Shown here: positions 23,267 through 56,200 of the stretch, piece by piece | Position numbering within the stretch: the stretch's first letter is position 1 | Layout: each line of letters begins with the position of its first letter | Assembly: GCA_041662445.1 (NCBI GenBank) | Contig: JBAZSL010000007.1 | Coordinates: forward strand, 7,064-71,063 | DNA length: 64,000 nt | Source of the DNA: Candidatus Babeliales bacterium | GTDB lineage: Bacteria > Babelota > Babeliae > Babelales > RVW-14 | Direction of reading: 5' to 3' | Program-made: the position numbers and the translations under genes | The notes under the pieces: generated by a model | The model's input: the letters and a program-made list of their open reading frames with translations, nothing else | Told to the model about the DNA's origin: nothing | Database searches by the model: none

Positions 23267-24775
23267 TTAAAGTAATTCCTCATACTTTATCGGAAAAATT
23301 AATGCGTCTTTGAAGTCTGTTGGTTCAGCTTCAGGTTTTACCGCAGGGCCAAAAAGATCAACATCAGCGTGAGCTTTGGCTTTTGCAGTTTGTTCATCGT
23401 TATTTTTTTTATAAAACGCAATAAGATTCTCCGGGAATGCGGCGATGATTCTTTCCCTGTAGTTTATATAATTTCCCCAACTGTCAATCGCAGAGTCTTT
23501 TGCCGCAGTAGCCCCATTATAAGACACACGGAGGTTCTGATCTGAAGTTTCTTCAAAAGTGAAAAGGGGATACGTTGGAGCCGCATAAAAAAAGAATGGA
23601 GATTTATGATTCAAAAGGGCGATAAAAGGAGAATCTTTAAAGGGGAAATCTTTTCTCTCTTTGGTATATATTACACCACGGAAAGTAAAAGTGAAAAAGC
23701 GCTGCGCAACCGGTGCTTCATTGATCTGTGTACGCCGGTCAATACCTCCTGATGATAATCTGACATAGGTAAGCAGCTTGAATCGCTCGAGAGGATCATA
23801 AACTGCATTCCAGCTATAGAGAAAAAAGTTATCAGGATACAACTTTTTATAATCCAAATATGCATGGGCAAGTCCCGACGGTGTGTCATAGCAATTTTTG
23901 TCCACAAAATAACCGATAAAAACGATTTTTTTATTTTCTGCTTTTTGAGCAAAAAAAGCTCTTAAAAATCCAAAAAATGAATGGTAATAATAAATTGGAA
24001 TCATGGTTGCAAAAAGTTTAAGCGTAATATTTGAAAACCCTGTTTCGTGAGTAAAGTTGATGGTGTTGTTGTTTGAAACTACAATTTTGCCATCAAATGT
24101 TACCTGCTTTTCAGTTATTTCCTTTTTGGTTGGGTTAAAAGGAAGTTTGAGCTGGCGGGCAAGCGCAGAAATAAAATCTTCGCTTAATAATATTTTGGTG
24201 TGTCTGGATCCTTCAATAATAATTCCTTCTTTGAGAGGGTATTGAGAATAAAGTGGATCAATGAGAAAAATTGAAACACTTTTTTGTGGAAAGTTTTTTG
24301 TCAGCGTGTCGAAAATAAACTCTGGAGCAATTTGTTCATGGACTATGTTGGGGCCAATGACCAGTACGACTACATCGCTTTTATCTTTTGCAAATTCGTC
24401 GACAAGCAGTTTTATTTCAGGGAAAAAGCGCTCTTTGCCGCCGATAAACGAGCTTTCTTCGCCTAGTTCTTTTTCATCGTCACCGTTGAATGCCAGCCCT
24501 TCAAACCACTTGTTTTTATGCGTTTGAATATGCCATAAGGTGCTTATTGCCGACGATGCATCTTGAAGATGGTCTTGAAGTATTGATGCAACATTTTGCA
24601 TGTGTTGCTGAGTGGCATTACGGGCAACCGTACGTTGGAGATCTTTGGTCAGCCCTTTGAAGAGGGCGGTGTTTGTTGCTTCTGATACACCTTGTCCTCC
24701 CATCGCATTGAGCGATGAAAGATAGCAACTGATAATACAAAATGTTGCAAATACAGTGATTCTAGCTCTCCTCAT
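23267..24775 (-). CDS. hypothetical secreted protein (~503 aa)
   Basis: A strong RBS AAAGGAG lies 5 nt before the ATG at 24775, inside the 3' end of gmk. Signal-peptide-like MRRARITVFATFCIISCYLSSLNA. No recognisable domain. Confidence 0.6.
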   Translation of the reverse strand: MRRARITVFATFCIISCYLSSLNAMGGQGVSEATNTALFKGLTKDLQRTVARNATQQHMQNVASILQDHLQDASSAISTLWHIQTHKNKWFEGLAFNGDDEKELGEESSFIGGKERFFPEIKLLVDEFAKDKSDVVVLVIGPNIVHEQIAPEFIFDTLTKNFPQKSVSIFLIDPLYSQYPLKEGIIIEGSRHTKILLSEDFISALARQLKLPFNPTKKEITEKQVTFDGKIVVSNNNTINFTHETGFSNITLKLFATMIPIYYYHSFFGFLRAFFAQKAENKKIVFIGYFVDKNCYDTPSGLAHAYLDYKKLYPDNFFLYSWNAVYDPLERFKLLTYVRLSSGGIDRRTQINEAPVAQRFFTFTFRGVIYTKERKDFPFKDSPFIALLNHKSPFFFYAAPTYPLFTFEETSDQNLRVSYNGATAAKDSAIDSWGNYINYRERIIAAFPENLIAFYKKNNDEQTAKAKAHADVDLFGPAVKPEAEPTDFKDALIFPIKYEELL

Positions 24776-24785
24776 GGGGACTCCT

Positions 24786-25367
24786 TTATCGCTTAATTTC
24801 ATCAATCACAATTCGTACCGTAGCATCAATTGCCTTTTGCAAATCATCATTCATCACATGATGAGAAAAAAAATGTTCTTTTTTTTCTTCTGCAATTTCT
24901 TGCGCAGCAAGCTTAATGCGTCGCTGAATGACTGCTTCAGCATCTGTTCCGCGTTTGCGTAACCGTTGTGCTATAACCGCGGCGTCAGGAACGGTAAGCC
25001 AAATAAGTACCGCATCAGGAATATTTTTCTTCCATGCATGTGCGCCATTGCGATCAGTAACAGCAATAAATGATTTTCCCAGTTCAAGGTCGGTACAGAT
25101 TGAGCGTGGTGAGCCATACCACTTACCGTCATAATTATTGGTTTCTAGAAAAAAGTTGGCCTCTTTTTTCTCAAGAAAGTCTTTTTCAGTAACAAAGTGA
25201 TAGTCGATACCGTTCTTTTCGCCAGGGCGTCGGGGACGGGTGGTGTAGGTGATGACGCGTGAGAAGGGATATTGTTTCCCAACAATACTTAATACGTTGG
25301 TAGCGATGGTTGTTTTCCCGCCGCCGGTTGGCGCGGAGAGGATAAAAAGGACGCCTTTACTTTGCAT
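24786..25367 (-). CDS. gmk: guanylate kinase
   Basis: P-loop LSAPTGGGKTT, …TTRPRRPGEKNGIDYHFV… motif. 193 aa. Confidence 0.92.
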   Translation of the reverse strand: MQSKGVLFILSAPTGGGKTTIATNVLSIVGKQYPFSRVITYTTRPRRPGEKNGIDYHFVTEKDFLEKKEANFFLETNNYDGKWYGSPRSICTDLELGKSFIAVTDRNGAHAWKKNIPDAVLIWLTVPDAAVIAQRLRKRGTDAEAVIQRRIKLAAQEIAEEKKEHFFSHHVMNDDLQKAIDATVRIVIDEIKR

Positions 25368-25606
25368 ATGTTTCTGCCCGTTTATAAGATGCTGCTAATT
25401 TTCCCTCAATTACGCTGAGCTGAGCCGTATCACACTGCTGCTTAGTGATTTCTCCCGTGGAGACTTTGGCGGCGCTTGGTGGCCATGCAGCCCGAGTAGC
25501 CTCTCTGCTTAAAGTTTAAAATTGGACACCCTTTAAAGAATTATTTCACTTTTTCTGCAAATTCTCTATATCTTTGTGTCCTGTGCGTTATATACAAGGA
25601 TAACTG

Positions 25607-27337
25607 GTGCTAAACCTTCGACAGATTCTTTCTGCAACGTTACTTACAGTTACCGTGCTGTTCTGCCAGGCCGGTACACCAAAACTTTCTGCAGCATTGC
25701 ACACCGAACCGGTAGTTAAAATATGGTCGATGGTAGCGCCGCATAGATCAATTGTGGTGGCTGACCTTTCATTGCACAAGTTTCTTCTGATTGTGCGCTT
25801 TAATATCGGGGCGTATCTCAAAGAAACCGCAGGTAAAGATAGTAGCAATTATCATAAAATGCAGGCGTGCGCAGCTGCGCTTGGTATCGTAGACAAGGCC
25901 ATTGAGCTGCTCCGTGAAAGCGTCAACGCCTTTAATAATCACTGCGTATCATACAATCCTGATATTGAAGCACGATTTTATAACCTATGTACCTACTTTG
26001 ATGATGTTGGCATCGCAAATCTTGAGCCGCGGCATGTGAGAGCTTTTGGCAAATCGGTTGCCGAATTTAATAGGTATATCTCGACCTATTATATGGACCG
26101 CAAAAGATTTTTATGCAAAGAAGATAGTGAGCTGTTTGAACGACTCATCAGACTTAATCTGATTTTGTCCGTTAGCCTGGTGAGTTCTGACTATATTGAT
26201 GTTGCCTGGTATGACAAAGTTATGGATTGGTTGCTGTATAGACCACTTGAATTTGCCAGCGATCATCCGTGGGTTGTAACGGCTGCATGTGTCGCTGTTA
26301 TATGTGCTGGCGCCTATTATCTTCACCAATCGCATCAGAAATCCTTGTATGCTATTTCTTATAAAGAAGTTCCGGGGCAGAAATGCAGGGAATGTGGGGT
26401 TAACGCTGTTGTTAATGCGCTGGTTCTTGCTCATCCTGAACTTGAATCACGCCATGCAGAACTTGTTGCTTCCGGGCGGCAGTACGTTGAGGATACGCGT
26501 AAAGCTAAGGTAGCCCCACCAGTACAGCAGGGTACTGCCAACCAGACACCAGAAGTCAAAGTGCAACCTCAAATCCCCGTTCGTGCGCAGGATCTTGATT
26601 TTCAGGAAGTGCAGGATTTGCTACAACACATTGCCGACCATGCCATTGCTGGTCAAAAGTTAAATGTTGCTAATATTGTTGCGGTGCAGGATGCGCGCAT
26701 ATCAACGCCAAGCATAGTGACTAAAGAATTGTTTGAGAGCTTTAAAGGTTTTCATAACCAACAATCGCAGGTGTGTGTGCTCTACCTTGGGTCTTTGCAG
26801 GTTGGTGGGTATGGCCATTGGATTGCCGTTCGTATTGAGCCATCGCCACAAGCTCCTGGCGGAATTCGAGCGCTTGTAGCCGATTCGCTTGGCGGTTGTT
26901 CGTTCCTGGACTCGTTCTTTGGTGGCGTCAACCCTAACCTTAAGTTATTGCTTGATTTCTACCATGCGCACAACCCGCTACTTGCACCTCTTCTGCCCCA
27001 AAACTTTAATTTTCAGGAGTTTATCCACGCTTTTCAGGAAGTAGAAAACGTTGCTGGCATTCTGGGCGCTGATGCGCAGGGATCAGTGCAAGACAAGGCA
27101 ACTCGTGGTTGTGGAGCATTTGCTAACGGCTTTAATGGTTTATCGGTCATGGGTTTTGATGCTACCGCCTACCCAACGTGGAAGCAATCATTTGAACAGG
27201 CGTTTGCGACACTTAAGGCATATTGCCTTGAGAACAAAATAAATCTGAATATTCCCAACCAGGCACCATTTGCCATGACGCAAGCAACAAGTTTTGAACA
27301 ATTTATTGGTTGGTGTCGAGGTTTGGGCGGAAATTAG
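25607..27337 (+). CDS. signal-peptide/TM protein with papain-fold Cys-protease domain resembling UCH/Josephin deubiquitinases
   Basis: GTG start with AAGGA RBS. Signal peptide and a TM helix at about aa 220-240. Q258-x4-C263-G-V-N-A-V-V-N, then GGYGH404WIAVRI and ALVAD426SLGG form a Q/C/H/D arrangement. Confidence 0.55.
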   Translation: MLNLRQILSATLLTVTVLFCQAGTPKLSAALHTEPVVKIWSMVAPHRSIVVADLSLHKFLLIVRFNIGAYLKETAGKDSSNYHKMQACAAALGIVDKAIELLRESVNAFNNHCVSYNPDIEARFYNLCTYFDDVGIANLEPRHVRAFGKSVAEFNRYISTYYMDRKRFLCKEDSELFERLIRLNLILSVSLVSSDYIDVAWYDKVMDWLLYRPLEFASDHPWVVTAACVAVICAGAYYLHQSHQKSLYAISYKEVPGQKCRECGVNAVVNALVLAHPELESRHAELVASGRQYVEDTRKAKVAPPVQQGTANQTPEVKVQPQIPVRAQDLDFQEVQDLLQHIADHAIAGQKLNVANIVAVQDARISTPSIVTKELFESFKGFHNQQSQVCVLYLGSLQVGGYGHWIAVRIEPSPQAPGGIRALVADSLGGCSFLDSFFGGVNPNLKLLLDFYHAHNPLLAPLLPQNFNFQEFIHAFQEVENVAGILGADAQGSVQDKATRGCGAFANGFNGLSVMGFDATAYPTWKQSFEQAFATLKAYCLENKINLNIPNQAPFAMTQATSFEQFIGWCRGLGGN

Positions 27338-28847: not shown

Positions 28848-29765
28848 GTGAATGGCGTAGGGCAAGCACTTGCTCAATTTCATGCGTATTTGATAACTGA
28901 AAAGCGCGTTGCGAATAATACTTTTATGGCGTATCGACGCGATATTGACCATCTTAATGCTTTTTTACTGCGTGAGAAAGTTCCTTTTGATAAAATCAGC
29001 AAACGGCATCTTACTGCCTATATAAAAACGCTCAAAGAGCAGGGGCTTTCGGCACGATCTTTATCTCGTAAAATCTCAACGTTTAAACTATTTTTTCGAT
29101 TCATTACGACAAACTTTCATCATGCCAATGCGGCGCAAGGGTTGGTATTTCCCAAGCTTGAAAAAACACTGCCACGTTATTTAACTGAACAAGAAATTGA
29201 AAAACTTCTATCCGCCGCAAACCGTGATGGCTCACATAAAGGTGTTCGTAACAAAGTCATGCTCTATATGCTCTATGCTACGGGAATGCGGGTATCAGAG
29301 CTGGTCAATGTTACTATTGATCAAATTCTTTTCGACGAGGGCTTTATTTGTATTCATGGCAAAGGTGGCAAGGATCGTATGGTGCCACTGCCAAAAAATA
29401 TTATCGAATTGTTACGCTACTATTTAACGCATGTGCATCCAAAAATGGTGCGTCCTAATATCGAAGAGGCTCAACAGCCGCGATATATGTTCGCAACCTG
29501 CCATCGCGGACACATTAAGCCCCTTTCGCGCCAATCGCTGTGGATAGCGCTCAAAAAAGTAGTGCGGCAGGCGGCTATTGTAAAGAATATATCGCCACAT
29601 AGTTTACGGCACTCGCTTGCTACGCATTTACTCAGCAAAGGTGCGGATTTACGTTCGTTGCAGCTTCTTTTGGGGCATCAAAATTTATCTGCCGTTCAAA
29701 TTTATACGCATCTTGGTGACGCTACGCTCAGGAAAATTTACGACGCCAAGCATCCCCGTGCATAA
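28848..29765 (+). CDS. tyrosine recombinase XerC/XerD family
   Basis: N-terminal SAM-like domain plus a catalytic domain with R…HxLRH…Y (…SPHSLRHSLATHLL…LLGHQNLSAVQIYTHL). GTG start. Confidence 0.85.
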   Translation: MNGVGQALAQFHAYLITEKRVANNTFMAYRRDIDHLNAFLLREKVPFDKISKRHLTAYIKTLKEQGLSARSLSRKISTFKLFFRFITTNFHHANAAQGLVFPKLEKTLPRYLTEQEIEKLLSAANRDGSHKGVRNKVMLYMLYATGMRVSELVNVTIDQILFDEGFICIHGKGGKDRMVPLPKNIIELLRYYLTHVHPKMVRPNIEEAQQPRYMFATCHRGHIKPLSRQSLWIALKKVVRQAAIVKNISPHSLRHSLATHLLSKGADLRSLQLLLGHQNLSAVQIYTHLGDATLRKIYDAKHPRA

Positions 29766-29778
29766 GACAATACACATC

Positions 29779-30408
29779 ATGAAGAATACTGTATTGATGC
29801 TCATTGTGTGGTCTTGTTATCTTTTGAGTACGCACGCCGAATGTGCTCTTTCGGTCAATTGGGAAACACATGCGTTTGAGTGTGCCGATCTTATTGCCAC
29901 TATGCCTGAAGATGATCCTGAATTTGATGAAGTAAGAAGTATCTTTTTGTGTTATATGCAACGCGCATTTGATGATGGTGAAACGCTTCTTCATGCACCC
30001 TATAAATATAAGTTTTGTGCCAAAGACACTCATCTCAAAACTATTGAAATTGCTTTATGTCGCGCGATTGGAAGGAATACAGACTTTTTTGAATCGGTCT
30101 TGCTGCAGCAAGATGATGCTGGCGATACTCCCTTTCACGCAGCTATATGGTATGGCCATGAAGATTGGTTGCAGCTGCTCATTCGTGTGGCGCTTGCCTG
30201 TACTTCGGCATGCTCTTTGGCTTATGTTGAGGAGATTTTGCTCATTAAAAATAAACAGGGTCAGTCAATTTTTGACCTTGCTCTTGCTGAAATCAAAAAG
30301 TTTACCACGCAAGGCGATCCGTTGAGAGCGTTTGCATGTAGCACCATGTTTGTGTCGTTAGTCCAATTTCGGCATGATCTTGAGGAAAAGAGTTCAGAAC
30401 TTTACTAA
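29779..30408 (+). CDS. secreted ankyrin-repeat-like protein (209 aa)
   Basis: ATG at 29779 (the track ORF begins inside the recombinase gene). Signal peptide MKNTVLMLIVWSCYLLSTHA. ANK-like units (DDGETLLHAP…, DAGDTPFHAAIWYGHEDWLQLLI). Confidence 0.6.
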   Translation: MKNTVLMLIVWSCYLLSTHAECALSVNWETHAFECADLIATMPEDDPEFDEVRSIFLCYMQRAFDDGETLLHAPYKYKFCAKDTHLKTIEIALCRAIGRNTDFFESVLLQQDDAGDTPFHAAIWYGHEDWLQLLIRVALACTSACSLAYVEEILLIKNKQGQSIFDLALAEIKKFTTQGDPLRAFACSTMFVSLVQFRHDLEEKSSELY

Positions 30409-30514
30409 ATCGTTAACCAACAGAATCTCCTGAAGGTTGCATTCATATTTTTGCCTATGTCATGATGCTGCATGGCGATATTCAAAATTATTAAAAATAT
30501 TTTCTGGAGAAAAC

Positions 30515-33367
30515 ATGGCGACACGTTGGCTATGTATTGCAACTGTTGTAAGCATGTGTTTGAGCTTTTTGTGCATGCGGACTGTACATGGTATGAAGCA
30601 GCAACCGGTTTCCACCACGATCAATCTGATTATTTTGATTGAAACTGGAACTGAGCTTCTTAGTAGAATAGAAAAAATTCACGAGCTTAAGGTTTCGACC
30701 GGCTCCATTGCTGATAAGTTTATTTCTGCGCTTGAACAAGAATGTTCCTTCATCCTCATCCAGTCTGAAATGTGGGATTATTTTTTACACGCAGAATACA
30801 AATATAAAAAAGATAAATTTGTTGATTGTACCCAGCTTATTGATTGGAATAAATGGGAAATGTACAGGATTTATGTCGATCAAGAAGCGGAAGCGGCTTC
30901 TCAGGAGAAAAAAGAAGAGAAACAACCCCATGACAAGCTCGCGGATTTTTATATTTTTTGTCCGATAGCATATAAACAGATGCTTGTCCAAGCTTCGGCA
31001 CTACCACCTATCAAAGAAGCCCTCAAAAAAATACCTGGTCCTGTTACAGCGCCGACGGCATTGGCGATAGAGGCTATTAACAATCTCCCTGATATTGGCA
31101 TTGCGCTGCCGGGAGATAATGACAAAGTTTCAAATCCTCTTCAAGAGCGTGGGAAGTTGCGTGATATTTTTGATAAGTATGCGCAATGGTTAGCCCAACA
31201 AGGCTCTAACAGAAATATTCAAGAGCAACAAAAATATTTACAAGACGCGTTGGAAGCTTATGAAGAAAAGTCGACAAAACTCCTCGGAGATAACTTTTTA
31301 CAATGTTTGGAGAAGATTTGTGTTTTAAAAACGGTAAAGGTTACGTCTGATATACCACATCTGCCACGATACAATGTGTATATCAATGGTCATGGAAGTT
31401 CAACGGTTTACACCGCTCAGTTAGAAGATTTAATGGCTCAAGCTCAGAGATTTGGATATTGGCCAATGGGGAAAATTTCGTCATATGACGTAGGCGAGGT
31501 ACACAAGTTCAAAGAAGCCCGCGATGCAGTTAAAACCACATTGGATGAGGAATCAGGATATATTGCCGGACTTTCCCCGGTTATCTATGGCAAGACATTG
31601 GATTTTTTTAACGGGATTGCCAACTTTGTGTTTGTTTCAACATGCTATGGGGCTGGGACACATCTAGCGCTACCCTTTGTCTTTATGAATGCCCAGTCGT
31701 TATCGTATACATTAATTACTGGAGCGTTGCTTGATGCAGAAAGTTCCTCAAAATCACCAAGTGTAACCGAAGAGAGCACCCAACCCAATAGTTATAGCGT
31801 TAAAAGCAATATTCATTTTAAAGAGTATTTTGAAGGAACGGGTAATTTTGAGAATTTTGTACGCAAAGAAGAACAGGAAATAGCCGCATCTGAAAAAGCA
31901 CGTGGGAAACAAGAGCCAAGAAACTATTTTGCACGGTTGCTTAATTCTGTTGGTAATTTTTTGGATGAAGCAGGAACCATGAAAAAAGACTATCACATTC
32001 AAAATTTACCATGGATAAAACTACCAGGGCCTACCGATTGGCATGTTGTTATGCATATGGATAACCAAGTCTTGGTTATTAATGATGCGCTGTTAGCAGC
32101 TAAAAAATTAGAAAAGAAATTAAAATTCAAACCGTCCCCGCGAGAGCTCCAAAGCGACGAATTGGTTCCATGGGTATCACTGCCGCCAGAATTGACGGCT
32201 GCTTGGACGGAAAAATGGGGTGCCTGGGAAAAGAAGAGAAAACAGCCTGCATTTTCTTCCGCATGCATTGACGCACATAATAAAACATTAATTTTTGTTG
32301 CTACGGCTCAAACCATTATACCAACTATTGAATTTGGCTGTCCCAGTTCGCCTGTGGCGATAATTCCTCTGCATCGGCCACAAAGCCCTTCAGCGCCGAT
32401 AATTATCTCTTTTGAAGCTATGCGTGTGGGGAGTGCGTTTGCTAGCTTTTTTAATTACGTTTTAAAGCCAGCAGAACCATTGGTGAAAATACCTCAAAAA
32501 ACACTTATAGTAATAAAAAAAATTGAATACGGTACTGCTCGGGATTATGTAACAGATACAAAAGATCAACTTATTACGTTCATAAAATCTATATGCCCGC
32601 AGTTAGACGCTAAGAAAGAGCTCAGTAACTGCATCGTTGTTTTTGGCGCTGACAACATGCGGTCCTACGATTGTTATGTTTCATGTGATGATCACTATTT
32701 TGGGATTAAGCACAAAATAGATAGAATGATTGAAATCAAGGAGATATCACTTAATGAGGCGTTCGAGCTTGCCGCTAAGGATTGGAATGCTGGGTTGCTT
32801 GGTGAATTAATGAAGCTTGGCGCCAAGTCAGGTCCAGATGCGCGAGGTGATACTGCACTTATGAAAGCAGCTGAAGTAGGAAGCGTAGCTGTCGTTAAAA
32901 AGTTGATTGACGCAGGAGTTGATCTTGATGCGCAAAATGATTTTAAAGAAACCGCACTTATCTATGCAGCAGAAAAAAATCAATTGGAGGTAATCAAGCT
33001 GTTAGTTGAAGCGGGGGTAAAGGTAAATTTACAGGCGACGTCAGGATGGACGGCTCTTTGCAAGGCGGTTTACAATAAAAATATGCCTGCGATCACCTAT
33101 CTTCTTGATCATGGCGCTGATCCAAAATTGGGTATAACGTTAGTTGCATCCGCAAAAGACTTTCAGTTCATCGCCTCTCGCACAACCCACACATCACCAC
33201 ATTTCAAAAAAGCGCTTCAAACAACACAACAAACGTGTGCTAGAGAATTATGGCGCCAACAAAAGACTGGGGGCTCGCAAACAGCTCGTGATATTGTTAC
33301 GCAACAAATGCAGAGGATGAATATCCCTAAACTTATCCAAGAGACTGAAGCTTGGCTGAAGGCGTGA
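30515..33367 (+). CDS. large secreted protein (950 aa) with C-terminal ankyrin repeats
   Basis: GGAG RBS before the ATG at 30515. Signal peptide MATRWLCIATVVSMCLSFLCMRTVHG. Three or four canonical ANK repeats at the C-terminus (GDTALMKAAEVGSVAVVKKLIDAGVDLDAQN…ETALIYAAEKNQLEVIKLLVEAGVKVN…GWTALCKAV…YLLDHGADP). Confidence 0.8.
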   Translation: MATRWLCIATVVSMCLSFLCMRTVHGMKQQPVSTTINLIILIETGTELLSRIEKIHELKVSTGSIADKFISALEQECSFILIQSEMWDYFLHAEYKYKKDKFVDCTQLIDWNKWEMYRIYVDQEAEAASQEKKEEKQPHDKLADFYIFCPIAYKQMLVQASALPPIKEALKKIPGPVTAPTALAIEAINNLPDIGIALPGDNDKVSNPLQERGKLRDIFDKYAQWLAQQGSNRNIQEQQKYLQDALEAYEEKSTKLLGDNFLQCLEKICVLKTVKVTSDIPHLPRYNVYINGHGSSTVYTAQLEDLMAQAQRFGYWPMGKISSYDVGEVHKFKEARDAVKTTLDEESGYIAGLSPVIYGKTLDFFNGIANFVFVSTCYGAGTHLALPFVFMNAQSLSYTLITGALLDAESSSKSPSVTEESTQPNSYSVKSNIHFKEYFEGTGNFENFVRKEEQEIAASEKARGKQEPRNYFARLLNSVGNFLDEAGTMKKDYHIQNLPWIKLPGPTDWHVVMHMDNQVLVINDALLAAKKLEKKLKFKPSPRELQSDELVPWVSLPPELTAAWTEKWGAWEKKRKQPAFSSACIDAHNKTLIFVATAQTIIPTIEFGCPSSPVAIIPLHRPQSPSAPIIISFEAMRVGSAFASFFNYVLKPAEPLVKIPQKTLIVIKKIEYGTARDYVTDTKDQLITFIKSICPQLDAKKELSNCIVVFGADNMRSYDCYVSCDDHYFGIKHKIDRMIEIKEISLNEAFELAAKDWNAGLLGELMKLGAKSGPDARGDTALMKAAEVGSVAVVKKLIDAGVDLDAQNDFKETALIYAAEKNQLEVIKLLVEAGVKVNLQATSGWTALCKAVYNKNMPAITYLLDHGADPKLGITLVASAKDFQFIASRTTHTSPHFKKALQTTQQTCARELWRQQKTGGSQTARDIVTQQMQRMNIPKLIQETEAWLKA

Positions 33368-41218: not shown

Positions 41219-43369
41219 TCACGTGATTACTCGCACTTTTTCAAGAACCGGTACTTTTCCCTCTTCAAGTTTTTTTCCCTCAGGTCTGATAGGTCCGGAA
41301 GGTGCGTCTGGAGCCCCCTGTATAACCGCATAGGCTTCATCTTTTTTTTCTTCATCACCTGCTTTTTGGGCCTTTGCTGCTGCTGCATCTTCTTTAGCTT
41401 TGCCGGCAACCGTTGCTGCTTCTTTTTTCTCTTCAACAGCTACTGGTTTTTTCGCTAGTCTTTCTCGTGCTGCTTGTATGTGCTCACCTATCTCATAACG
41501 CTGAGGATGCCTGCCTAAGTCGGCTTGTGCTTCCCTCAGCTGATCATCTGTGAGGTCAACATTATCGATGATATATATGGCAAGCTTCTTTACACCTGTA
41601 CACGTCTGAAAACCAGCTCTAAAGATAGCTTCGGAAAGTGCGAAACTTATTCCGTCCGCGCGTGGTTGATCAAGATAAGGCATCTCACCCGAACCCTTCT
41701 TCTCCTTCCATCGGGAGACTTTGTACAGTTTTTCCTTTAAAGCAGCGGCCATTTTAGGGTTTTTTTCTTTTACCATAAAATACGCTATTTCAGCTGGTAC
41801 ATCATCGAGGGAAGGCGCCTCATCGAAAGATAGAAATTGTTTATAGTATGTATCCATGAGATGCATCACTACTTCTTCGTGACCTTTTACCGTAGCAGCA
41901 AGCAACGCAACTTGGAAGGCTGATACAATGGTTTCCATGTGTTGGTCGATCGGACGCATCTGTTCTTTGCGCTGTGCGATATCTGCTTGGCAAGCGTCCC
42001 AAAAAGGCTGGCGAAATTCGAAATATTTTCTACGACCTTCTCTGCTATCGCGATCTTTTTCGATGCTGCCTATCTCCGCTGCAATCTTATCTGCCTTGAT
42101 TTTTTGGACTGTGTATTTAGCGGCTAAACTAGCGCTTGATTTTATTACCGCGTCAAGGTCTCCTGCTTCCGCCGCTTGTATAAGATCTATTTTGAGTTTT
42201 TCAATATCTTGATCTTGTAAGCGAGCCCGTAAGCGGGCTTGTTTTATTTTTCCAGCCACATAATCACTGAGAGGATTGGTTTTCAAGCAATCCTCTGGAA
42301 AATCTTCCGGCGTTGACCCCAAGAAGTTATCGCCAATATATTGGGCGATTTCCTGCAAGCCCTTAGTCCGCAGTCGATCGTAATCAAGATAAGAGATAGC
42401 TTTGCGCAATACGTCACGCTTCCCGAACCCAAAGATTTTATTAATATCGTCATCACAACGTTTAAGTAATGCCCATATCAAATATTCCAGATTATAACCG
42501 CCACTACTATCGAACTGCTCTAATGGTTGAAACTTTACGTAAAGTGATCCAACATCTTTTTTAAAGATCTCTTTAATCACTGTTCGTAGCGCAGGCGTTG
42601 CAAGCATATAAGCTATTTCAAGTGGCGTATTGATGTAGTCGTGCCGCAATGAAAAAAAATATAGAAATTTTTCATAGTATGTATCCAAGAGATAGTGCAC
42701 TATCTCTTTTTTGTCTTGTGCTGTAGCGGCAACTAAAGCAACTTCGAACGCACTTTGAATGATTTCTTTACTGACTTGATCGTCTGTTTTAACACGGGCT
42801 AGGCGTCCGCTTATAGTTCGTACCTCGTCTAACTCACCTGATTCTGCGGCCTGTATAAGTTGTCGCTTAAGTTGCCCAAGGATTTTCGCATCATCTTCTG
42901 TTGCTTCTTCATAGGAAGGTGGTGGTAACTCTTTATAGGGAGGAGGTGGTAGGACATAGGGCGGTGGTGGGACACTTTTTTGTATGGCTGCTTTGTAGGA
43001 AGGTAGTTGTTCCTTGTTAGCGTTTGTTAGTAGTTTTCTAATAGCTTTATAATTCTTGTCTTTAGGATCTAGCGTGGCAAGAGCTATAGATGGATCTGCT
43101 CCTTGTTTAAGGAGATATTCTACTATTTTGGTATCTCCAGCACGGACGGCGTGAATTAAAGGTGTATTGCCAATCTCCTTATAAGGTTTTTCAAGGAGAC
43201 GTTTATCTTTTTCGTTAATCAATTTTTCAACCGCGTTGAGGTCTCCTTTATCTATCGCGGTAACAAGTTGTAGTTCTGGACTTTCTATTTGTGCAGCATT
43301 GAGTGGCGATGCGATAAATGTTGTGAGGATGGCCGTAATGAGGGCTATCGGGCGCGTATATTTCTTCAT
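41219..43369 (-). CDS. secreted ankyrin/PPxY-motif protein (716 aa)
   Basis: Signal peptide …FIASPLNAAQIES. One N-terminal ANK pair. PPPPYVLPPPPYKELPPPSY cluster (aa 133-153). Two copies of an LIQAAExGxLD…ALVAAT…Y-rich helical module. Lys/Glu/Ala-rich tail. Confidence 0.8.
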   Translation of the reverse strand: MKKYTRPIALITAILTTFIASPLNAAQIESPELQLVTAIDKGDLNAVEKLINEKDKRLLEKPYKEIGNTPLIHAVRAGDTKIVEYLLKQGADPSIALATLDPKDKNYKAIRKLLTNANKEQLPSYKAAIQKSVPPPPYVLPPPPYKELPPPSYEEATEDDAKILGQLKRQLIQAAESGELDEVRTISGRLARVKTDDQVSKEIIQSAFEVALVAATAQDKKEIVHYLLDTYYEKFLYFFSLRHDYINTPLEIAYMLATPALRTVIKEIFKKDVGSLYVKFQPLEQFDSSGGYNLEYLIWALLKRCDDDINKIFGFGKRDVLRKAISYLDYDRLRTKGLQEIAQYIGDNFLGSTPEDFPEDCLKTNPLSDYVAGKIKQARLRARLQDQDIEKLKIDLIQAAEAGDLDAVIKSSASLAAKYTVQKIKADKIAAEIGSIEKDRDSREGRRKYFEFRQPFWDACQADIAQRKEQMRPIDQHMETIVSAFQVALLAATVKGHEEVVMHLMDTYYKQFLSFDEAPSLDDVPAEIAYFMVKEKNPKMAAALKEKLYKVSRWKEKKGSGEMPYLDQPRADGISFALSEAIFRAGFQTCTGVKKLAIYIIDNVDLTDDQLREAQADLGRHPQRYEIGEHIQAARERLAKKPVAVEEKKEAATVAGKAKEDAAAAKAQKAGDEEKKDEAYAVIQGAPDAPSGPIRPEGKKLEEGKVPVLEKVRVIT

Positions 43370-53207: not shown

Positions 53208-56200
53208 ATGGCATTTAGCTATCGCTGCAAAAACACCATTACTATCATCGCGCCTTTTATTTTATTTTTCCCAACACCAACGCTTCATGCCGTAAGCTAC
53301 GGTTCAGATACCGCGGTCTCCATCGTCAACCCCTTCAGCATTCCGGGTAGCACCGACAACATCATCAGAACATTTGGCGCCGCCAAAAACGGTTTTGCAT
53401 TTGTTGATAGCTCCGTAAGCTGTACCTTCAATTCCATTTATCCCGTTGCAGGCCCGGTTTCACTACGTGGCGGCAAACTGTATCTTCAAAGCGACCTTAC
53501 CCTTACCAATACCGGAACGTTTGCCGACCTTGGCAGCATTATCGGACAAGATCATGCGGTCAATCTTTCTCAAAGTTCCAACACTTTTGCAAGCCGCACC
53601 AACCCATCAGGAGCTCGCACGCTCGCCCTTGTTGCACGTACAACAGCAACACGAGCTATCTTTTCAGTCGACTGGTCATACAACAATCAATACTTAGCAG
53701 TCGTCATGAGCAGTGGAACGGGTAACGAGCTGCTTATCTACTCTTTTAACGGCACCGCGCTGAGCCTACTTAGAGGCGTCGAGTTGAGTGGTAGTGGCAC
53801 CTCGGTTCGGTGGCGACCAAATAGTTATTATCTCGCGGTTGCATCATCCTACACATCCGGCAAAATTCGCGTATATCTCTTCACCCCTGGGCCGAATACG
53901 CTCACTCTTAAAAATACTCAAAACCCTCCCGGAACCATAGCATCAGTTGCATGGCAAGGACGCGGAAGCTATCTCGCAGTTGCTGGTTCTGTAGTGTATG
54001 CCTATCGCTTCAACACCGGCACAGAACTCCTGGATAATCGCTGCACCGCAACTAACAACGCCGCGCTTGGCGGAAGTTCCACTTATGACAATATTCACTG
54101 GGCGCCAGTAGGGAACAAAGATGACTTTATTGTTGGTACAAGTGGCGGAAGATTACATTTATATAATTTCGATAGCACCGCCTCGACAAGTCTTAGCCAC
54201 TTAAAAAATTATAATATTGCCACAGGAATCAGATCTCTCGATTGGTCTCCAACCAGCACCTATATTGCTCTTGGTTTTACCAGCGGCAACATTAGAACCT
54301 ATCAACACACCGCGGCGACCAATACCATAGGATTCAAAGCACTAGCAACCATCGCTGCAATAACAAATGCTCTCAGTTGGAAACCAAATGCAACAGAGCT
54401 CACTGCTGGATTCGGCTCATTTTCTGGCAGCGAACACCAATTTTTTCTCTTTAACACCACATCGTATGCGCTCACCAATGTATACAACATTGAAACAGGA
54501 AATCCGGTCAACGCCGTAAAATTTTCCAACACCGATGGCACCTACATAGCACGTGCTGATAACACAACCCGCTATCTTTCGATCTACAAAGAAAACTACT
54601 CACCTTTCATCTTCAACAATGTTAATCTTTTTCTTAACAGCAATCTCACCATTGGCACCCCTCTCACCTTTATTGGCAACTGCACCGTCAACGGCCGTGG
54701 CAATGGCATGACTTTTACTGGAGATGGTACCATCAACATTGCCACCAATAGTTTTCTCGGCGTTAGCAATAGTAATTTATTCTTTGAACGACCCAATGCC
54801 TTTGCCTTGCAGGGAAAAACATCACGACTAAGCCTCAATGATAGTAAAATAGGACTTAATAGCGACGTTGTTTTTGGTGACGGCTCGTGGGAAGTGTATA
54901 ACGATGTTGTGGTAACCGGCCCCCATACGTTTGCTTATTCAACCGCAAACACCTCAACCATTCACAGCAACGCATTTCTTACGTTTAGTAACAAAGCCAT
55001 ATTTGAAATAGGCAAGTCCCAAGATACCGGACTAGGGGCATCCGCAAGCACAAGCCAACCGCTTGAATTTGAAAACAGTTCTGCACATCTGGTGATTGAT
55101 AACGCCACGCTTCACGTCACCAACTCAGGGCTTGTCCTTAAAAAAGGTACTATTGATGTTTACAATAAATCAGACTTCGTTGTTGATTACACCGATACAA
55201 ATCAAAGTAAAACAACACAAGCGCTTGTCTTTGGCGACGGCGTTTCCAGTATTAATAGCCCAACGCTCATACTTCATGGAAATGGCACCAACCTTACCAT
55301 AAGCAACGGCGCTATTGTTCTTGATGCTTACCAAACACCCACATTGTTGCAATTCGACGGACAGGCAAAAATGACCCTCATTGAGACCGTATCGTTATAT
55401 TTTAAACAACCAGTCTCGCTCATCGATGGATGGATGAGACCATCAATGGACAGCTCTTTTTATTCCGACCCTAATGTGTATGTAACCGCACACAACGTAC
55501 GATTTGAGTACGCCGATATCTTCGCTGATTACAACGTAACCGGAACACTGCTCAATCCATTTAATACAATCCTCGGCTCTAATGATTACATTTTTGTTAA
55601 TCGCGGCAACTCCGTCGAAAACCTCATCATTAACGGACAAGGCGCTTCAGTTTCTGGTCTCGGCGGTCCGCTCGGCACCATCACGCTTTATGATGCAAAC
55701 GCAAGTTTCATATGGGACGTTGCAGGTGAGATTGGGGAAAGCGCTATTTATCTGAACGGAGGTATGCTTGCTATAACCCAAGACGTTAAAGCTACCACTG
55801 GTTTTACCTTTGGCGGAACGGGAACGGTAGATATAAGTGACAGAACATTCGAATTAGGATCAGCAGCCACCGAATGGGCTGGGAATATCTACTGGGCAAG
55901 CAATGGAGGATCTCTCAAGCTCAACAACAATGTGACCCTATCAGGAATTTGGACATTCAGCGGGAATCTTGCTGTCGATGGACAAGACTATCTCATTGAT
56001 TTAGGCCAAACCGGTACCATTATTCTTGAGCGTGGTGCACACGTAACATTCAGCCATATGTCCTTGTACAACTTGTCGAGAAGGAACCAGATAGTATGCA
56101 AGGACAATAATTGCGAAATTAAACTTATAATTGCTGACCTGTTGCTTGCTGGAGATTACTTGTTTGATAAGGGTAGTCTTTATGTTTATTACAACTCTAC

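Follow-up and report, generated by a model that had tools for sequence, protein, structure and literature searches.

A candidate membrane-anchored, circularly permuted CE-clan cysteine protease encoded by a Dependentiae bacterium

To which clan of cysteine peptidases does a 576-aa protein of a Candidatus Babeliales bacterium belong, and on which substrate would it act? The gene of this protein is located in a 64,000-nucleotide stretch of contig JBAZSL010000007.1 (assembly GCA_041662445.1, positions 7,064 to 71,063 of the forward strand), which is called here the window and whose first letter is position 1. In an initial annotation, positions 26369-26896, corresponding to residues 255-430 of the open reading frame (ORF), were described as a papain-fold domain with a catalytic signature of the Josephin or ubiquitin C-terminal hydrolase (UCH) type, and the protein was proposed to be a deubiquitinase-like effector. 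Clans CA and CE hold all cysteine deubiquitinases (DUBs) and ubiquitin-like protein (Ubl) proteases, and the main difference between them is whether Cys or His comes first in the chain. In this work, we propose that the protein is a permuted CE protease devoted to host-directed deconjugation of ubiquitin (Ub) or Ubl. We assign a probability of about 0.6 to this explanation as a whole, in which the activity, the substrate, and the delivery route are those that we infer.

The motifs on which the question depends, VPG-Q258-KCRE-C263-GVNAVVNAL and GGYG-H404-W-IAVRIE...ALVA-D426-SLGG, are found exactly in the translation, and the signal peptide and transmembrane (TM) helix said to precede the domain are represented by a hydrophobic segment at residues 7-22 and a helix at residues 221-239. 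A HMMER search of 1.84 billion cluster representatives returned 100 relatives at E≤1e-3 and 66 at E≤1e-10. All 103 sequences in hand, whose domain parts were assigned by local iterative profiles, bear and match by profile an N-terminal module (N-module, residues ~27-242, with the TM helix at its end), and 70 of the 103 carry the Cys/His domain. Conservation was counted in 57 complete domains, with a mean identity of ~20%. Gln258 and Cys263 are each kept in 56/57, which bears out the expected conservation of the nucleophile in homologues, and Gly264 is kept in 46/57; position 270 is Asn in 34 and His in 15 domains. His404 is present in 57/57 and is followed by Trp (52) or Tyr (5), then by I/V/L at the second position after His across the family. 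Position 426 is occupied by Asp (34), Asn (16), or Glu (7), with Ser427 in 56/57. By sequence, this pattern is that of a catalytic Gln/Cys/His/acid site, far beyond chance, and every catalytic residue is intact in the target protein. The claim of a conserved cysteine-protease signature, with the papain superfamily taken broadly, is thus sound, as the signature is near-invariant in these domains. One family member has been deposited as 'hypothetical protein [Candidatus Dependentiae bacterium]'.

Order of the catalytic motifs and the relation to clan CE

The linear order in the target is Gln258-Cys263 ... His404 ... Asp426, and not the order His - Asp - Gln - Cys of clan CE. A profile of 40 domains in this native order (alignment A3) was searched against all PDB sequences. 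At E≤10, none of its matches was a deubiquitinase of clan CA; the best one was the Ulp1-like SUMO protease 6dg4 (E 0.025), and SENP8 was also listed. In the 6dg4 match, the Cys box was paired with the C-terminal block, 'GHW...DS' with the upstream 'SHWTLAV...DS', and 'nWLdgd' with the N-terminal 'AWLNDN'. The Cys box, the His box, and the WLND region therefore match CE enzymes as separate pieces in the wrong order.

In a second alignment (A4), each domain was cut in the hypervariable linker and its halves were swapped, so that the His/Asp half came first and the Cys box last. The resulting profile gave seven PDB matches at E≤10, all from clan CE, including 6dg4 (1.5e-5), RickCE 5ham (1e-4), SENP8 (9e-4 and 1.8e-3), and SENP1 (~0.6), and each of them was a single stretch HW - DS - Q - CG with natural spacing. 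When re-ordered members were compared with Pfam one by one, Peptidase_C48 was found in 8/38 (best E 4e-6); the other matches were to ElaD/SseL-like, RickCE_cat, and YopJ, all of clan CE, except that two members matched C12 on the Cys box. Members in native order gave weak C48 matches in 2/103. Pairwise hhalign comparisons, for which each reference sequence was verified against PDB, led to the same distinction: the A4 alignment was paired with SENP8 at 86.5% (E 4.6e-6) over 88 columns containing all four motifs, while native A3 reached 10% with the Cys box only.

The catalytic His, the acid, the oxyanion Gln, and the Cys lie in the H-W, D-S, and Q..C-G motifs characteristic of clan CE, and they align residue-for-residue to 6dg4, RickCE, and SENP8. 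By this alignment, the Cys box of the target is the counterpart of the Q..(D)CG box found C-terminally in Ulp1/SENP, being paired with 'RQTnGWDCGVFTITNA' of 6dg4 and 'AQQNSYDCGMYVICNT' of SENP8. The His box aligns to 'SHWTLAV' and 'GGTHWSLLV', and the acidic box to 'HLDS' and 'HYDS', of 6dg4 and SENP8, respectively. The WLND-equivalent helix has the family consensus nWLdgdEv..LL; its W is found in 19/57 domains and its L in 43/57. The linker at residues 302-326 connects the two ends that form the C- and N-termini in the canonical CE domain. Since the order departs from the one that defines clan CE, the family was filed as a permuted relative of this clan and not as a canonical member. Permuted CE homology, as read from these comparisons, holds at the level of the family profile, and we consider a circularly permuted CE-clan (Ulp1/SENP-like) fold of the domain to be likely.

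The assignment made originally, that of a deubiquitinase from clan CA, either Josephin (C86) or UCH (C12), with the normal Cys...His...Asp/Asn order, has its own arguments. The native order Q-x4-C ... H-W ... [DN]-S-L is that of ataxin-3 (Q9, C14, H119-W120, N134-S-L, a sequence verified against 1yzb/2aga), hhalign pairs the His hairpins 'EHWFTVR...FNLNSL' and 'GHWIAVR...VADSL', and two members give weak Pfam C12 matches on the Cys box. However, as Josephin shares the native linear order, a true relationship should align both boxes, and this was not the case: the A3 comparison with the ataxin-3 Josephin domain reached 9.5% over 27 columns covering the His hairpin only, and that with A4 reached 6%. 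The value for UCH-L3 was 1.7% (A3). Among all 103 members, no Pfam match to Josephin (PF02099) occurred at E≤0.01, and no PDB chain of ataxin-3/JOSD or UCH was found at E≤10. The best match to UCH (PF01088), in P0010, was below threshold (18.6 bits vs. a cut-off of 27) and spanned 39 residues (305-343) of the Cys box only. The match to clan CE, in contrast, improved ~1000-fold after correction of the order. The motifs thus belong to clan CE in permuted order; the resemblance to the H-W...N-S-L of Josephin is real, but it is a feature shared with CE enzymes. A Josephin or UCH identity is very improbable.

Other families of clan CA were also considered and rejected. In ovarian tumor proteases (OTUs), the acidic triad residue is located two positions after the catalytic His (H-aromatic-D/N/E) (PMC7396840). 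In the target family, I/V/L occupies this position, the acidic residue follows 22 residues after His, in the next strand, and none of the 103 members matches OTU in Pfam (C64/C65/C85, PF02338). C39 bacteriocin-processing, NlpC/P60, and other papain-like families gave no Pfam or PDB match in any member.

The domain (residues 245-470) was modeled with AlphaFold2 (AF2) from a 40-sequence alignment, with a pLDDT of 84.7 and a pTM of 0.84; a full-length run with only four close homologues was unusable (pLDDT 43.5). The domain model begins with strand 249-253 and helices 263-275, which Cys263 opens, and 277-301. A linker of low confidence leads to helix 332-345 (the WLND equivalent), strand 357-360, and helix 373-383. 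Then come the strands 388-393, 405-412, and 420-425, of which the second is immediately preceded by His404 and the third immediately followed by Asp426, and two further helices. The weakly modeled, indel-rich linker (residues ~302-326) sits where the canonical C- and N-termini of a CE domain would be fused. Foldseek, which performs sequential alignment only, was run with this model against 350,542 PDB chains and the viral library BFVD. Despite the confident model, no CA-clan DUB appeared in the top 50 of the PDB search. The top ten contains SENP8 (2bkq_B, E 0.35) and NopD (8rqi_A, E 0.39, TMq 0.30, 123 columns, rmsd 5.1) as partial alignments, and partial sequential CE matches would be in keeping with a permuted CE fold.

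In the same search, the best match in BFVD was A0A3G4ZWX5, a 1185-aa uncharacterized giant-virus protein of Edafosvirus sp. (E 7.9e-3, prob 0.63, 249 columns). To judge from the model, this protein may carry a related, perhaps permuted, domain; if it does, this would be a hint that entities associated with amoebae have exchanged it.

A different origin of the likeness to CE enzymes should also be weighed, namely an independent papain-like lineage in CA order that converged on HW, DS, and Q..CG, or a surviving CA-CE intermediate, in place of a secondary re-permutation of a CE enzyme. The two clans are considered circular permutants of one fold, related by an ancient permutation (PMC7391069, PMC7396840). 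Short catalytic motifs can converge, and the statistical support for CE homology is moderate. Nevertheless, the likeness is not confined to the catalytic residues. It includes the strand preceding Gln, the helix that follows Cys and has Asn at C+7, and the WL[DN] helix, as well as the spacing between motifs; it is collinear only in the re-permuted form, and no CA family was matched by sequence or fold. Such an origin appears improbable.

The N-module and the proposed function

The N-module has no Pfam, NCBIfam, or PDB sequence match and is, by sequence, a new family-defining domain. The Cys/His domain is not its only partner. In six members (P0047, P0060, P0075, P0093, P0024, and P0019), the N-module and TM helix are followed by a full USP domain, with E-values as low as 3e-54. 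The position of the catalytic domain is taken by a Macro domain (E 2.9e-35) in P0100, and in several members, e.g., P0028, P0088, and P0103, the C-terminal region is without any match. The N-module looks like a chassis for enzymes erasing eukaryotic post-translational marks.

In DUBs and Ubl proteases, in distinction from other cysteine proteases, the catalytic His is followed by an aromatic 'gatekeeper', owing to which the S2 site admits only the Gly of a Gly-Gly C-terminus (PMC7391069). The corresponding position 405 is aromatic (W/Y) in 57/57 domains. The reading of the domain as a Ub/Ubl isopeptidase follows from this residue, from the CE homologues, which are Ub, SUMO, and NEDD8 proteases, and from the presence of USP and Macro on the same module. 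A role directed at host Ub or Ubl, as the initial annotation had supposed, therefore remains the best reading in view of the sister proteins with USP domains, while its Josephin/UCH part has to be abandoned.

In the mechanism that we propose, a signal peptide, a helical module of ~190 residues, and one TM helix would precede a permuted Ulp1/SENP-like protease domain. The strand-loop-helix with the oxyanion Gln and the nucleophilic Cys, which to our knowledge is C-terminal in every known CE enzyme, would have moved to the N-terminal end of the domain, where the hypervariable linker would join it to the 'WLND' helix. With the Cys box at the front, the order becomes Gln258-Cys263 ... His404(Trp405) ... 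Asp426(Ser427) and mimics that of papain and Josephin. Cys263, activated by His404 and Asp426 and assisted by Gln258 as the oxyanion hole, would attack the bond after Gly-Gly, with Trp405 as the gatekeeper for these glycines. The substrate would be an (iso)peptide bond of host ubiquitin or Ubl (SUMO/NEDD8), and the enzyme would erase host tagging at the membrane interface, with the N-module serving as an anchoring or delivery platform.

A permuted CE enzyme could also act as an acetyltransferase (YopJ/LegCE-like) or as a dual enzyme (ChlaDUB1-like), and not as a Ub/Ubl protease. CE acetyltransferases share the His/Asp/Cys site and keep the Trp after His (PMC7391069), and 2/38 re-ordered members weakly match Pfam YopJ (E 0.012). 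Matches to protease families (the C48 matches given above, ElaD/SseL, RickCE, SENP8, and the Ulp1-like enzyme) are, however, stronger and more numerous, and the domains exchanged on the same N-module, USP and Macro, are hydrolytic erasers. An acetyltransferase is thus a rather improbable alternative to the proposed isopeptidase.

Several points weigh against the explanation as a whole. No part of the target sequence by itself matches Pfam, NCBIfam, PADLOC, or PDB sequences above chance level (DUF5631, E 0.096; GacH, E 0.44). After re-ordering, it likewise matches no Pfam (C48 included), NCBIfam, or PDB family, so that the link to clan CE is one of profiles. These profile matches have moderate E-values (1e-5 to 1e-3), and the partner in hhalign was one sequence and not a family. 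Foldseek of the domain model against PDB and BFVD gave no match at E≤0.001, the best CE values being 0.35-0.39. The target has Asp329 in place of the first tunnel Trp of the WLND motif, and CE-clan enzymes can be acetyltransferases instead of proteases. Finally, a cleaved signal peptide, an exported N-module, the single TM helix as a stop-transfer segment, and the His/Lys-rich residues after it predict, from the sequence, a catalytic domain located on the cytoplasmic side of the bacterial inner membrane and not facing the host. Delivery by vesicles or by insertion into a host-derived membrane, as has been proposed for other Dependentiae effectors (PMC6561590), would be a speculative solution by analogy.

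Genomic neighborhood, evolution, and gene layout

The gene is flanked by the divergent guanylate kinase gene gmk, by proS, encoding an archaeal/eukaryote-type prolyl-tRNA synthetase (ProRS), by xerD (XerC/D), and by genes of ankyrin-repeat proteins. Further out in the window lie genes for RNase Y, LptF/G, DnaK, LepA, DnaB, DnaN/RecF, and a 2817-aa WD40-like protein. The neighboring ProRS is 84% identical to that of one metagenome-assembled genome, 67% to that of 'candidate division TM6 bacterium UASB124', and 66% to that of a further uncultured bacterium. The target is a chromosomal gene of a Dependentiae (TM6) bacterium. Three other genomes (L001, L003, and L009) have its orthologue directly upstream of proS; the orthologues are 23% identical to the target where the adjacent ProRS is 66-67% identical. 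By these comparisons, the gene is vertically inherited and fast-evolving, and such a combination of synteny with very fast divergence is typical of host-interaction proteins.

Synteny has also to be considered in connection with a more conventional role, in which the protein would be a cysteine protease with a bacterial, non-ubiquitin substrate, acting at the cytoplasmic face of its own inner membrane, e.g., on envelope or exported proteins that have to be processed or checked for quality. The predicted N-out/C-in topology (signal peptide, single TM helix, basic residues) agrees with this possibility, the gene is a conserved syntenic neighbor of the housekeeping genes gmk, proS, and xerD in four genomes, and no secretion system was seen in the window. 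Against such a role, the sister proteins carry USP and Macro domains, for which such genomes offer no known bacterial substrate, the His-Trp gatekeeper is conserved, the very fast divergence relative to the neighbors fits host interaction, and there were no PADLOC defense matches. Cultured Dependentiae are obligate intracellular parasites of protists, rich in putative effectors bearing signal peptides; in one of them, ~44% of coding sequences have a signal peptide and are regarded as effectors exported by Sec, and outer-membrane vesicles have been seen (PMC6561590). Taken together, these observations make a bacterial substrate unlikely.

An origin in anti-phage defense or in a phage was rejected, as PADLOC returned 0 matches, PHROGs gave noise only, and no E1, E2, or Ubl genes lie nearby. 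The statement in the initial annotation that bacteria have no ubiquitin system is not strictly true, because bacterial Ubl defense systems exist, but no such system lies near this gene.

Other genes near the target deserve mention as separate observations. In L001, a related 110-kb Dependentiae contig, a gene for a 416-aa USP-type deubiquitinase (PF00443; 6638-7888, minus strand) lies between gmk and the target orthologue, and a gene for a Zn_ribbon_RanBP protein (5460-5948, minus strand) lies beyond gmk; neither is found at this position in the window. The window has instead a 512-aa ORF (23267-24805, minus strand) with an N-terminal hydrophobic segment, which overlaps the end of gmk by 20 nt, gave no Pfam, PADLOC, or PHROGs match, and may be another lineage-specific secreted protein. 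Three ankyrin-repeat proteins, typical of the host-manipulation repertoires of Dependentiae, are encoded among housekeeping genes (29617-30408, plus; 30437-33367, plus; 41219-43369, minus). The 2817-aa ORF (53208-61661, plus) has only weak eukaryote-type WD40/beta-propeller Pfam signals at residues ~150-460, and its other ~2300 residues are without a match.

The features of the gene are collected in the table. The GTG start agrees with the N-termini of three full-length metagenomic homologues, and full-length homologues are 55-76% identical to the target protein. The signal-like segment consists of a basic n-region, a hydrophobic core (residues 7-22), and a C-Q-A cleavage-type motif (...VLFCQA/G, the slash marking the predicted cut). 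An N-terminal hydrophobic segment is present in 55/79 full-length family members, and a hydrophobic segment at the end of the N-module in 69/79.

Table. Features of the target gene, with positions counted along the window.
Feature	Position	Strand	Remarks
Whole gene	25607..27337	+	576 aa + stop codon (ORF list); encodes a candidate membrane-anchored, circularly permuted CE-clan cysteine protease
Ribosome-binding site AAGGA	25596..25600	+	6 nt 5' of the GTG start; read from sequence
Predicted Sec signal peptide, residues 1-22 (MLNLRQILSATLLTVTVLFCQA/G)	25607..25672	+	read from sequence
N-terminal helical module, residues ~27-220	25685..26266	+	predicted all-helical, in a low-confidence model
Transmembrane helix, residues 221-239 (WVVTAACVAVICAGAYYLH)	26267..26323	+	Kyte-Doolittle 19-residue mean 1.73
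Catalytic domain, residues 245-470, probably permuted Ulp1/SENP-like (clan CE)	26339..27016	+	
Cys box, residues 249-275	26351..26431	+	beta-strand, Gln258 (26378-26380), Cys263 (26393-26395) at helix N-terminus, Asn270
Hypervariable Pro/Gln-rich linker, residues 302-326	26510..26584	+	indel-rich columns 100-130 of domain alignment A3; pLDDT 63-69
Counterpart of the 'WLND' helix at the N-terminus of Ulp1/SENP, residues 329-344 (D-L-D-FQEVQDLL)	26591..26638	+	aligns to 'AWLNDN' of 6dg4
His box, residues 388-412	26768..26842	+	strand QVCVLY, then G-His404-Trp405 (26816-26821) opening the next strand
Acidic box, residues 420-429	26864..26893	+	strand ending in Asp426-Ser427 (26882-26887); counterpart of the Ulp1/SENP D-S motif
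C-terminal helical extension, residues 471-576	27017..27334	+	nearest relatives only: P0001-P0005, P0048, P0055, P0080; best-modeled part of the full-length AF2 run (pLDDT 57-88)

The idea that the C-terminal 106 residues repeat residues 91-189 of the N-module was rejected. Its source, a local jackhmmer suggestion, was profile drift through one weak match in the 103-sequence database, and the idea was ruled out by BLASTP (E 0.35) and hhalign (5.5%). A terminator-like hairpin (GCCGATTCGCTTGGC with a T-rich tail; 26879-26893, plus strand) lies inside the gene over the codons A-D426-S-L-G; it is probably meaningless, one such site having been found vs. 2.4 expected by chance.

Comparison with known systems

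In the open-access literature, we found no report of a CE-type enzyme in CA-like order, nor of any Dependentiae deubiquitinase, and neither Pfam nor NCBIfam covers the catalytic domain or the N-module. There is about an even chance that this is the first natural clan-CE family with clan-CA threading, arisen by a second independent permutation or as a surviving intermediate, on a Dependentiae-specific chassis for swappable erasers of host post-translational marks (permuted CE, USP, and Macro). If so, its escape from annotation would be explained, as no Pfam or NCBIfam model sees such enzymes. The N-module would be a new platform for effector anchoring or delivery, and its carriers would be the first concrete candidate host-manipulation enzymes of Dependentiae (TM6), a widespread phylum of protist parasites for which the open-access literature gave no characterized effector. 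The swapping of cargo on this module would suggest that marks of the ubiquitin type and ADP-ribose marks of the host are erased systematically.

With Josephin (ataxin-3, C86), the target shares the residue order and the local motifs Q-x4-C, H-W, and N/D-S-L, and the His hairpin aligns locally. There is no profile-level homology (9.5%), the Cys box is not co-aligned, and no structural match was found.

The closest resemblance is to Ulp1/SENP proteases (C48, clan CE; human SENP8/DEN1 1XT9, Ulp1-like 6DG4). Common to both are the WL[ND] helix, the G-H-W strand, the end of the D-S strand, the Q-x4-5-C-G helix and its Asn at C+7, the places of Cys, His, and Asp in the predicted secondary structure, and, once the family is re-ordered, the inter-motif spacing. 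The target family differs in its Gln-Cys...His-Asp order and in the hypervariable linker that joins the canonical termini, and its native sequences fail the Pfam C48 model. The target itself lacks the Trp of WLND, and a signal peptide, the new N-module, and a TM helix are fused in front of its domain.

Bacterial CE effectors (RickCE 5HAM, ChlaDUB1/Cdu1, SseL/ElaD, XopD, and NopD 8RQI) are likewise proteins of intracellular bacteria that direct a Ulp1-like fold against host Ub or Ubl, and RickCE is the second-best match of the re-ordered profile (E 1e-4). All known effectors of this kind keep the canonical His-Asp-Cys order, unlike the target family. ChlaDUB1 is reportedly also anchored in the membrane by an N-terminal TM segment. 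CE effectors with studied delivery are translocated by type III or IV secretion.

Natural permutations of a bacterial DUB fold have been described in OTUs, namely EschOTU (2020; PMC7396840) and the EmcB/CoxDUB family (2025; PMC12501173), where the Cys-bearing helix was moved to the other end of the domain and the enzymes are still active; both have been discussed as possible CA-CE intermediates. Although they have no sequence relationship with the target family, the two cases are reciprocal: theirs are CA-clan enzymes in CE-like order, with His before Cys, whereas the target family would be of CE type in CA-like order. Such a domain would be the missing counterpart of the permuted OTUs, and permutation between the two clans would then be evolutionarily reversible or recurrent.

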